Of a stretch of 43,018 nt of DNA, positions 29,983 through 32,420 are shown one piece after another. The DNA is from Gammaproteobacteria bacterium (GTDB taxonomy: Bacteria; Pseudomonadota; Gammaproteobacteria; Natronospirales; REEB76): NCBI GenBank assembly GCA_028871235.1, contig JAGWNO010000001.1, positions 1 through 43,018 of the forward strand, written 5' to 3'. Both the position numbers and the translations under genes were made by a program. The notes beneath the pieces are model-generated. The model had not been told where the DNA came from. It searched no databases and worked only from the letters and a program-made list of their open reading frames with translations. Numbering within the stretch: position 1 is the stretch's first letter; each line of letters begins with the position of its first letter.

Positions 29983-30708
29983 ATGAATAAGGACGACAAC
30001 CGGCATCCACGCGAACGCAAAGTGTCCACGGACAGCGTACTCATCCGCGAATCATGGAAGATATTCCAGATCATGGCGGAGTTTGTGGAAGGCTTCGAGC
30101 GGTTAGCGTGCATCAAGCCTTCCGTAAGCATTTTCGGCTCCTCGCGCGTCCCGCCCGGGCATCCTTATTATGTATTGGCGGAACGCATCGGCCGGATCCT
30201 GTCCGATGCCGGCTTTTCCGTGGTCACCGGCGGCGGTCCCGGCAGCATGGAAGCGGCCAACAAGGGCGCCTATGCGGGCAAATCCCCGAGCATCGGTCTC
30301 AATATCCAGCTGCCTCACGAGCAGCAGCGCAACGCCTATCAGGACATCCCGCTGTCATTCCGGCATTTCTTCACCCGCAAGGTGATGTTCGTGAAATACG
30401 CCTCCGCCTACGTGGTCCTGCCGGGCGGCTTCGGCACGCTGGACGAGCTCGCCGAGATCCTCACGCTGGTGCAGACCAGGAAGACGCGCGCCATCCCCAT
30501 CCTGCTGGTGGGCAGCGAGTTCTGGCAAGGGCTGGTGGAATGGCTGCAGGCGCGGATGTTGACCGAAAGCATGATAGACGCCAAGGACCTTGCGCTGTTC
30601 AGGCTGGTGGACGGGCCGGAGGAAGTGGCGCAGGCCATATTCGACCATTACGGGCCGCGGGGTTTCGAGCCGTCACCCGAAGAACGCGAGGCGATGCTGG
30701 AGCTCTAG
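29983..30708 (+). CDS. LOG-family / TIGR00730 Rossmann-fold nucleotide-binding protein (nucleoside 5'-monophosphate phosphoribohydrolase-like)
   Basis: 241 aa with VVTGGGPGSMEAANKGA and the PGGFGTLDELAE motif. A GGAGAAG Shine-Dalgarno precedes the ATG. Confidence 0.9.
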   Translation: MNKDDNRHPRERKVSTDSVLIRESWKIFQIMAEFVEGFERLACIKPSVSIFGSSRVPPGHPYYVLAERIGRILSDAGFSVVTGGGPGSMEAANKGAYAGKSPSIGLNIQLPHEQQRNAYQDIPLSFRHFFTRKVMFVKYASAYVVLPGGFGTLDELAEILTLVQTRKTRAIPILLVGSEFWQGLVEWLQARMLTESMIDAKDLALFRLVDGPEEVAQAIFDHYGPRGFEPSPEEREAMLEL

Positions 30709-31109
30709 CTTTCCAGCTTGCCCACGTCTACATCGTCCAGGTCATGGGAATAGTCCGTGGCCAGTACGCGCCGCGCCTCGGCGGCATCGGCGCACAGCAC
30801 GCGCAGCTTGATGCCGCCGAGAGCGATGGCGTACAGCCAATCCATCTGCACCATGTGATCGTCGAACAGCGTTGCCTGGATGCCTTCCGCCGCCAGACGT
30901 CCCAGGACGATGTGTGCGTCGGTGATCCTGTCGAAAGTGGCGATGGTGACGTAGTCGTCCACGCCGGGACGCGGGTCTGCGGCGCTGTCCCAGTCATGTG
31001 ACCCGGGGTCACGCAGGGCGCAGGCCGCGCACAGGTACCGCAGGGATGCCGAAAACCATTGGCGGGCGGAGGCTACCGACAAGCTTGGCTGTCTTTCCCG
31101 GTGGGGCAT
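30705..31109 (-). CDS. DUF2007-type putative signal-transducing protein (start uncertain: ATG 31109 or GTG 30962)
   Basis: The C-terminal 80 aa (DDYVTIATFDRITDAHIVLGRLAAEGIQATLFDDHMVQMDWLYAIALGGIKLRVLCADAAEARRVL) fit the DUF2007 pattern. The N-terminal 49 aa are low-complexity and may not be translated. Confidence 0.7.
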   Translation of the reverse strand: MPHRERQPSLSVASARQWFSASLRYLCAACALRDPGSHDWDSAADPRPGVDDYVTIATFDRITDAHIVLGRLAAEGIQATLFDDHMVQMDWLYAIALGGIKLRVLCADAAEARRVLATDYSHDLDDVDVGKLES

Positions 31110-31164
31110 GCCGCGCAGCGGCGTTCACCGCATTAAAGCACAAAACGGCAAGGCCGGCGGGGAC

Positions 31165-31199
31165 AAAAAAACCCCGGCGGAAGGGGGGTACCGCCGGGG
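31165..31199 (-). terminator. Rho-independent terminator, minus-strand orientation
   Basis: A 9-bp GC stem pairs CCCCGGCGG (31172-31180) with CCGCCGGGG (31191-31199), with a 10-nt loop. On the minus strand it is followed by U7 (plus-strand A-run 31165-31171). No minus-strand CDS lies upstream of it, because pip (from 31464) is on the plus strand. Confidence 0.75.
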
Positions 31200-31330
31200 C
31201 AAAGCCTTCATGGCTGGAGGTGATTGAGTGCTACTCACTTCATTAAGGGTGCGGCGTCCTTGCGTGTCCTGCCTCACCCCGGTCCTGAGTACATCCCTGT
31301 CCCGCCATTCCCTGGCGGCTCAGGCAGGTG
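31165..31330 (-). ncRNA. Candidate Csr/Rsm-family (CsrA/RsmA-titrating) small RNA; 5' end approximate
   Basis: The minus strand carries six GGA motifs within 55 nt (plus-strand TCC at 31257, 31267, 31283, 31294, 31300, 31309). One sits in a 5-nt hairpin loop: CCGCCA-GGGAA-TGGCGG (31318-31302). One, GGACAGGGAUGU (31302-31291), matches 11/12 of the CsrA SELEX consensus RUACARGGAUGU. It ends at a strong intrinsic terminator and has a GacA-box-like palindrome upstream. The only ORF in it is a junk-like 48-aa frame. Confidence 0.5.
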
Positions 31331-31382
31331 CTAATCTGCCATGCACGTCGTGCCGGTACAGTCAGGCTGGCGCGAGACCGCA

Positions 31383-31400
31383 TGTAGGGAAAGGCTTACA
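31383..31400 (-). promoter_or_regulatory. GacA/UvrY-box-like upstream activating sequence (TGTAAG-N6-CCTACA)
   Basis: The minus strand reads TGTAAGcctttcCCTACA, against the consensus TGTAAG-N6-CTTACA (one mismatch, correct 6-nt spacing). It is centred about 65 nt upstream of the first GGA-bearing hairpin. Confidence 0.5.
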
Positions 31401-31463
31401 CGCAGGTGCTTTGAGCATCCATTTGCTTTAAAACTGTTCCCCTAATCCCCAGAGCAGGCCGTC

Positions 31464-32420
31464 ATGCGGGACTTCTATCCGCCCCTGGACCCGTTTCGTA
31501 CCCACATCCTGCCGGTAGAAGCTCCCCACGAGCTCTATGTGGAGGAATGCGGCAATCCCGCCGGCTTGCCGGTGGTATTCGTGCACGGTGGTCCCGGCGG
31601 CGGTTGTAACGCCGACAGCCGGCGGTTCTTCGATCCGGTTCGCTACCGCATCGTGCTGTTCGACCAGCGCGGCTGCGGCCGGTCGCGCCCGCATGCGGAG
31701 CTTACGCACAACACCACCCAGGCATTGGTGGCGGACATGGAACATATACGTACCGCGCTTGGTATCGAACGCTGGCTGGTGTTCGGTGGTTCCTGGGGTT
31801 CGACGCTGGGGCTGGTGTATGCCGAGACCCATCCGCAGCGCGTGCTGGGGCTCATCCTGCGCGGTATCTTCCTGAGCACCCGCGAGGAGCTGGACTGGTT
31901 TTACCAGGGCGGCATCCGCCATCTGTTCCCTGATTATTTCTCGGAGTTCACCGCGCTCATTCCCGAGGACGGACGCCGGCGGCTGCTGCATGCTTATTAT
32001 CAGCAACTCACCAGCCCGGATGAGGCGTTGCGCCGCCGGGCCGCCGAAGCCTGGTCTTTGTTCGAGGTGCGCTGTTCGACGCTGCTGCCCAACGAGGCGA
32101 TGCTGGATCACATTTCCGAGCCGGACATCGCCATGGCCGTGGCGCGGCTGGAGTGTCACTATTTCGTGAACGACTGTTTTCTTGCTCCCGATCAGATTAT
32201 CCGTGACATCGACCGCATCCGTCACATCCCCGGTGTCATTATCCAGGGGCGCTATGATGTGGTGTGTCCCGCGGCCGCCGCCTGGCGGCTGAAACAGGCC
32301 TGGCCGGAAGCGGAACTCAGGTTCATCGCCGATGCAGGCCATGCGGCCAGCGAGCCCGGCAACCGTTCTGCCCTCATCGAGGCCACTGATGCGTACGCGT
32401 CAAGCCTGGGCCGGAAATGA
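31464..32420 (+). CDS. pip: Prolyl aminopeptidase (proline iminopeptidase)
   Basis: 318 aa: [11 protein letters not shown]...[10 protein letters not shown]...DQRGCGRS...GGSWGSTL (nucleophile GxSxG) ...GRYDVVCP. Confidence 0.93.

Follow-up and report, generated by a model that had tools for sequence, protein, structure and literature searches.

The 354-bp gap (31110-31463) between an open reading frame (ORF) of the DUF2007 family (30705-31109, minus strand) and pip (31464-32420, plus strand) carries a conserved, structured RNA on the minus strand. It lies in a 43,018-nt stretch of contig JAGWNO010000001.1 (assembly GCA_028871235.1, Gammaproteobacteria), hereafter the window. The RNA is probably an independently transcribed non-coding gene whose product acts as a sponge for CsrA/RsmA and is activated by a regulator of the GacA/UvrY type. 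Conservation, structure, the display of GGA motifs, a palindromic box at a fixed distance, independence from the flanking genes and non-coding character support this reading directly; the point at which transcription starts, the regulator that binds the box, the binding of CsrA and a downstream regulatory effect are predicted from them. Judged from its sequence, the RNA belongs to a new sequence family within a functional class that is well known, the Csr/Rsm sponge small RNAs (sRNAs), in uncultured soil Gammaproteobacteria. The predicted sRNA of about 160 nt spans 31165-31326, with the 5' end placed at 31326 +/- 3 and the 3' end within the U-run of the terminator.

A preliminary description of the locus had listed a palindromic box, clustered GGA motifs in loops and an intrinsic terminator as the architecture of a Csr/Rsm-type sRNA. 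Direct reading of the sequence found all of its listed features at their minus-strand coordinates, and each element of the architecture proved to be conserved across 48 homologues, unlike a chance cluster.

Distribution and conservation

With the pip protein as query, 80 genomic loci were retrieved and searched for homologues of the RNA by nhmmer and blastn, using a 271-nt candidate as query. A homologue was present in 21 of the 80 pip loci. All 21 belong to metagenome-assembled genomes (MAGs) of uncultured Gammaproteobacteria, with pip 68-77% identical, and in all of them the RNA is located upstream of pip on the opposite strand. A metagenome scan with an invariant 22-mer yielded 33 loci, 31 of which are true members on soil and sediment contigs (27 full-length, four truncated by the contig end). 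The other two motif matches (L085, L109) lie inside coding sequence and were rejected as chance matches. The family thus comprises 48 full-length members, 43 of them distinct. Among the carriers of the element are the MAGs JBAVYM01, JBAWFA01 and DASYGE01 and the 1.05-Mb contig Ga0134125_10000001. In a 22-sequence alignment conservation sets in abruptly with the palindrome and ceases beyond the U-run of the terminator, and both flanks are unalignable. A covariance model, R1, was built with 163 positions and 30 base pairs. It scores 170 bits on the window (31329-31166) and 60-166 bits on 47 homologues, and the divergent members L092, L089 and L113 reach 38-70 bits.

Three of the collected records are likely mis-binned or mislabelled MAGs. 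L012 (Natronospirales) and L020 (Bacillota) are suspected because both carry the gammaproteobacterial synteny uvrD-LOG-DUF2007-sRNA-pip-dtd, and L044 (labelled as a Halobacteria archaeon) because a gammaproteobacterial pip-dtd pair is present.

Secondary structure and non-coding character

The RNA folds into four small hairpins and a terminator. In a model-based alignment of 42 sequences, 94.4% of the cells form standard pairs, compared with 37-48% when the partners are slid by one to three columns. Compensatory double changes occur in 16 of the 30 pairs; column shuffles give 4.3 +/- 1.3, and none of 500 shuffles reaches the observed value. The 22-sequence set shows the same pairing and covariation behaviour. 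Since G:U pairs are frequent in H1, H2 and H3, the minus strand is the transcribed one.

Hairpin H1 (31302-31318, CCGCCA-GGGAA-UGGCGG) shows compensatory changes in all six pairs, with 93.6% of the cells paired in the 42 sequences. Helix H2 (31246-31280, GGGGUG ... CACCCU) is supported by compensatory changes as well: a U:A pair of the window is C:G in most members, and the innermost pair is G:C, C:G or A:U depending on the member. In L092 and L089, H2 is an entirely different helix (GGAACCGG/CCGGUUCC). Hairpin H3 (31227-31239, AGUG-AGUAG-CACU) is present in all members with differing arms, among them GGUGC/GCACC, GAUGC/GCAUC and GAGU/ACUC, and three of its pairs have both sides changed in eight sequences each. 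Hairpin H4 (31203-31215, AGCC-AUGAA-GGCU) has three invariant pairs and is closed by A:U in 33 sequences and by G:C in five. Between H3 and H4 lies the block AAUCACCUCC (31216-31225), which resembles an anti-Shine-Dalgarno sequence. It is nearly invariant in all 48 members, the divergent L092, L089 and L113 included, and is unpaired in the consensus structure.

The intrinsic terminator (31199-31165) consists of a 9-bp G+C stem and a 10-nt loop, CCCCGGCGG-uaccccccuu-CCGCCGGGG, followed by U7. It is present in all members, with 100% of the cells paired in the 42 sequences and compensatory changes in three pairs. No protein-coding gene lies upstream of it on the minus strand, so that a strong terminator stands here without a gene to terminate, as first noticed from the sequence. 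A consensus scan for sigma-70 promoters and terminators called neither; the 10-nt terminator loop is too long for the scanner. Two long-range helices between the 5' CCUGCC leader and G-rich segments, one of them proposed by RNAalifold, were discarded, their paired fraction equalling that of shuffles with no excess covariation.

The gap had been described as lacking a credible ORF. Mechanical ORFs of 34-67 amino acids are in fact present, and it is the indel pattern that shows the lack of coding constraint: against the window sequence, 268 of 269 indel runs have a length not divisible by three, so that no peptide is encoded. Indel phase served as the coding test, a test for stretches free of stop codons being uninformative at this G+C content and length.

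GGA motifs and CsrA-type sites

The window has a G+C content of 64.5% and a GGA background of 0.85-0.91 per 55 nt. Six GGA triplets fall within 55 nt at 31311-31257, the sole stretch with at least six in the 43-kb window on either strand. Six GGA columns are conserved in at least 80% of the members and, in the 42 sequences, all lie outside the supported helices except for one base. They comprise the H1 loop, a GGGAC at the foot of H1, an ACA-RGGA-UGU site, the linker GAGGACC, a GUAGGAC and the mini-hairpin GC-AAGGAU-GC. The GGA of the 5-nt H1 loop (31311-31309), whose looped display the preliminary description had noted, has an unpaired probability of 0.99 in a single-sequence fold.

CsrA selects the consensus RUACARGGAUGU in SELEX (systematic evolution of ligands by exponential enrichment), with the GGA in a hairpin loop (PMC4347634). 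The window contains an 11/12 match, GGACAGGGAUGU (31302-31291, GGA at 31296-31294), at the position first noted, and this site is kept as GGGACA(A/C/G)GGAUGU in most homologues. The third conserved GGA (UCAGGACC, 31283-31285) occupies a single-stranded linker; its column is conserved in at least 80% of the members and lies outside the helices. The apical region of H2 holds a GGA at 31269-31267 and the mini-hairpin GC-AAGGAC-GC (31263-31254) with a further GGA at 31259-31257. In homologues, the apical hairpin of H2 displays CAAGGAUG, which equals the SELEX core.

In the divergent members L092, L089 and L113 the arms of H1 and H2 are completely different, yet AGGAU, UGGAU, AGGAA and AGGAC are shown in loops. 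The retention of GGA in loops despite rewritten helices shows selection on GGA display and not on primary sequence.

Promoter region and palindromic box

The box of the window, TGTAAGcctttcCCTACA (31383-31400, minus strand), is an 18-bp palindrome of the GacA/UvrY type, recognized by sequence and conservation. It differs at one position from TGTAAG-N6-CTTACA, as had been stated. That 18-bp element, an upstream activating sequence (UAS), is essential for activation by GacA and is located at -75 in rsmY and at -196 in rsmZ (PMC4950607; also PMC3171408, PMC7911923). The pattern TGTARG-N6-CYTACA matches once in the 43-kb window and never in 100 shuffles, and across 840 kb of collected locus sequence the box pattern is confined to these sRNA loci. 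The family consensus is TGTARG-N6-CCTACA, with the perfect palindrome TGTAGGGATWGTCCTACA in many members. L083 and L102 carry a one-base change, and L092 and L089 the half-site version TTCAG-N6-CTTACA. Wherever a member's upstream sequence is complete, the first base of the palindrome lies exactly 71 nt before R1 position 1.

Downstream of the box, a predicted extended -10 element, TGgCAGATT, occupies 31333-31341 (hexamer CAGATT at 31338-31333). The invariant bases near the start (A, A and T) are those that fit nAnAnT of TATAAT, and they are preceded by TG. By this fit the start is predicted near 31326, and the box would span about -57 to -74. The weak CAGATT hexamer, together with the missing sigma-70 call, would fit an activator-dependent promoter.

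Two further promoter blocks are conserved between the box and the -10 element at the same offsets in all homologues, namely CTGRCT and TGTCGGC. The former reads CTGACT in the window (31360-31365, minus strand); its C, G and C are invariant in the 22-sequence alignment and kept in a 41-sequence stack. The latter has a degenerate copy in the window, at about 31371-31377. A distance of 21 nt separates CTGRCT from the -10-like hexamer, more than a standard sigma-70 -35 element would allow. Together, the two blocks may form the site of a second regulator. The box is located only 63 nt upstream of the start codon of pip, which is on the opposite strand, and the activator of the sRNA probably occupies the promoter region of pip-dtd as well.

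Elements at the pip locus of Chromatiales

The remaining pip loci were searched for dense GGA motifs downstream of a relaxed box. Six unannotated elements were found in Chromatiales: L053 (about 3888-3640, minus strand) and L054 (about 688-430) of Thiohalocapsa, L080 of a Chromatiaceae member (about 3887-3640), L046 of Thiodictyon (about 3929-3730), and L056 (3575-3378) and L059 (about 1956-1765), assigned to Chromatiales. All six lie upstream of pip in divergent orientation and possess a box (e.g. TGTAGTCCGATTCCTACA) and a clear -10 element (ACTATAAG). The RNAs are 115-187 nt long and contain 5-11 GGA motifs, many as GCA-GGGA-UGC. A 5' GUCGCC pairs with GGCGAC just before the terminator, whose loop often holds a GGA. 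No Csr/Rsm match was obtained with Rfam on five of the Chromatiales loci, the hits there being weak and driven by the terminator. The block AAUCACCUCC is not present in these RNAs.

Cross-matches between R1 and the Chromatiales elements reach only 15 and 3.5 bits. Common descent with the window RNA is plausible because the locus, the box, a 5' UCGCC and a CACUCAAYCA motif are shared. With or without common descent, the recurrence of box, GGA array and terminator at one locus strongly supports the assignment to the Csr/Rsm class.

Comparison with known Csr/Rsm RNAs

The RNA is close in size class to RsmY and RsmX of Pseudomonas, which measure 110-125 nt compared with about 160 nt here (PMC4950607, PMC7911923). 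Six or seven GGA motifs, several of them in hairpin loops or linkers, are a common property, and an 18-bp palindromic UAS has its 5' edge about 75 nt upstream of the start, at about -74 here if the predicted start is used. A weak core promoter, a strong intrinsic terminator and the organization as an independent intergenic gene are further likenesses. Reported GGA counts are six for RsmX, seven for RsmY and ten for RsmZ (PMC4950607, PMC7911923). Unlike RsmY and RsmX, the window RNA is located between DUF2007 and pip, has the right half-site CCTACA in place of CTTACA, lacks a GGA in the terminator loop and shows no detectable similarity to them in sequence or by covariance model. The AAUCACCUCC block and the AGCC/GGCU hairpin have no known counterpart.

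CsrB and CsrC of Enterobacteria, CsrB1 and CsrB2 of Shewanella, and RsmZ share the UvrY/GacA box and repeated GGA hairpins with the family described here; they sequester CsrA (PMC3171408). The window RNA is shorter than CsrB, CsrC and RsmZ, has only six GGA motifs and matches none of their covariance models. The Chromatiales RNAs of L053, L054 and L080, with about 185 nt, 10-11 GGA motifs and a GGA in the terminator loop, most resemble the longer CsrB/RsmZ type.

Weighing of the proposed sponge function

Several observations weigh against a GacA-activated CsrA sponge. All close members carry CCTACA as the right half-site where the canonical box has CTTACA; the regulator could therefore be another protein of the NarL/LuxR type. 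Neither csrA nor gacA nor gacS was found in the window, a part of the host genome, or in the 113 collected loci; a tblastn search with E. coli CsrA covered the window and all loci, and NCBIfam models identified no gacA, gacS or csrA among the proteins of 30 window ORFs. Allochromatium vinosum is reported to have BarA but no SirA (PMC7241856). Several GGA motifs are unpaired with a probability of only 0.3-0.7 in single-sequence folds. Shuffles of the element that preserve dinucleotides keep 3.8 GGA motifs compared with 5.9 observed, a modest enrichment. Because the raw count is only modestly above the local composition, the strong evidence is the conservation of the motifs, not their number. 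The most conserved part of the RNA consists of AAUCACCUCC and H4 and not of a GGA motif, and it is left unexplained by the sponge model.

The covariance models of Rfam are to be added to these points. In the whole window none of CsrB, CsrC, RsmY, PrrB_RsmZ and rsmX matched at the gathering threshold. Permissive thresholds likewise gave no Csr/Rsm model, with E<=10 for 31050-31500 and E<=1 for six homologue loci. Membership in an existing Rfam Csr/Rsm family, for which the preliminary description had proposed a scan, is thereby not supported.

Over 9 nt the block AAUCACCUCC is identical to the 3' end of 16S rRNA, the anti-Shine-Dalgarno sequence. Several minimum-free-energy folds pair GAGG with CCUC. 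The block might serve as a module for base pairing, as the partner of the GAGGA motif in a switch or as the binding site of another factor. A combined function is conceivable, if rather doubtful: the 5' two-thirds of the RNA would serve as the CsrA sponge, and the 3' AAUCACCUCC would pair with Shine-Dalgarno or GGA regions of mRNAs, or with the RNA's own GAGGA as a switch. As the block occurs in the 48 members and not in the Chromatiales RNAs, it would be a lineage-specific addition.

Less likely still is a trans-acting base-pairing sRNA of the sX13/ErsA or anti-Shine-Dalgarno-motif type, in which the core AAUCACCUCC pairs with Shine-Dalgarno or G-rich mRNA regions and the GGA motifs are structural or incidental. 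No part of the RNA is more conserved than CACCUCC together with the H4 next to it, and the consensus leaves this block single-stranded; a single-stranded C-rich CACCUCC beside a 3' hairpin and terminator is a likeness to sX13, ErsA and anti-hemB. The 3' part repeatedly matches the anti-hemB model weakly (19-24 bits), and an sX13/anti-hemB-like C-rich sRNA downstream of polA in the same window indicates that the organism uses that class. The anti-hemB matches are, however, far below the gathering threshold of 49.5 bits and are driven by the terminator. Unlike sX13 and anti-hemB, the RNA has a single C-rich block, is rich in GGA and is preceded by a GacA-type box. Six unpaired conserved GGA sites persist through the rewriting of helices, and the Chromatiales RNAs of the same architecture contain 5-11 GGA motifs without CACCUCC. 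Base pairing could moreover coexist with the sponge function and need not replace it.

It is improbable that the RNA, as a structured transcript under a palindrome-binding regulator, has a protein partner different from CsrA or serves some other purpose, in a lineage possibly devoid of the Gac/Csr pathway. The deviating half-site and the absence of a match to any known covariance model speak for such a role. The contexts ACA-RGGA-UGU and CA-AGGA-UG, however, specifically match the consensus selected by CsrA (PMC4347634), and the overall architecture is that of validated Rsm sRNAs (PMC4950607, PMC7911923). BarA/UvrY has been reported as well conserved in Gammaproteobacteria (PMC3171408).

Independence from the neighbouring genes

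The order LOG/uvrD-DUF2007-RNA-pip is found in 20 of the 21 genome loci. At the remaining locus, L014, the RNA is adjacent to pip and is followed downstream by an unrelated 490-amino-acid ORF without DUF2007. L092 carries the RNA beside dtd without pip, and both L092 and L089 are devoid of DUF2007. The reverse arrangement occurs in a sister group (L022, L024, L026 and L028) with the order LOG-DUF2007-pip, a gap of only about 80-100 bp and no RNA element. The RNA without DUF2007, and DUF2007 without the RNA, identify an independent gene and not a leader. If there is any genomic linkage, it is to the pip/dtd side, with which the RNA has a divergent regulatory region in common; this linkage persists where the DUF2007 side is altered.

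The preliminary description named an alternative, in which the RNA would be a 5' leader or attenuator acting in cis on the DUF2007 gene downstream. The terminator would then be a conditional stop. The shared orientation, the terminator 55 nt or more upstream of the annotated DUF2007 start and the order conserved in 20 of 21 loci would fit such a role, but it is hardly tenable in view of the contradicting synteny and the invariant 9-bp GC stem with U7; no covarying alternative pairing that could serve as an antiterminator was found.

At 134 amino acids, the listed DUF2007 ORF is probably over-extended at its 5' end, relatives matching only the C-terminal 85-96 amino acids. The true intergenic gap would then exceed 354 bp, and DUF2007 would require a separate promoter downstream of the terminator of the sRNA.

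A second candidate sRNA in the window

A weak full-length R1 match at 1318-1500 was considered as a possible paralogue and rejected as a different sRNA, sX13/anti-hemB-like and downstream of polA. This second likely sRNA occupies 1316-1427 on the minus strand, extending to about 1505, between polA (1594-4338, minus strand) and engB/yihA (104-1336, plus strand). It has a strong terminator and the C-rich loops GCUCACCUCCCUGAGC and GGUCUCCCCAAGCC. Rfam assigned 45 bits to anti-hemB (gathering threshold 49.5, E=1.6e-9) and 37 bits to sX13 (gathering threshold 50), with a weak match to Pseudomon-1/ErsA. The polA-engB interval is the classic locus of Spot 42, ErsA and sX13.

Proposed mechanism and biological meaning

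A GacA/UvrY/SirA-type response regulator would bind, as a dimer, the 18-bp palindrome about 57-74 nt upstream of the start and activate the weak extended -10 promoter. The transcript would fold into the four small hairpins and the terminator, leaving the six GGA motifs unpaired or looped, two of them in near-consensus high-affinity contexts. CsrA/RsmA dimers may then bind the GGA motifs, with roughly three dimers per RNA. Titration of CsrA/RsmA off the GGA-containing ribosome-binding regions of target mRNAs would relieve their repression.

The sponge RNAs of the Csr/Rsm class are the output of the Gac/Bar two-component system, which switches lifestyles in many Gammaproteobacteria. Their sequences drift fast, and homology tools miss them outside the model genera; two to four copies are usual for Rsm sRNAs. 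The understanding of the pathway is unchanged by the present family, and only the anti-Shine-Dalgarno-like block could change it. If the combined function were true, one sRNA would both remove a repressor and touch the binding sites of that repressor. What is gained is a family of 48 members from an uncultured gammaproteobacterial lineage abundant in soil, with a structure backed by covariation and a covariance model that can be used, and a variant of the regulator box, TGTARG-N6-CCTACA, whose spacing from the RNA is fixed. The position upstream of pip is a recurrent home for such genes, Chromatiales included. Together, the family provides a handle to annotate the Gac/Csr regulon in metagenome-assembled genomes.

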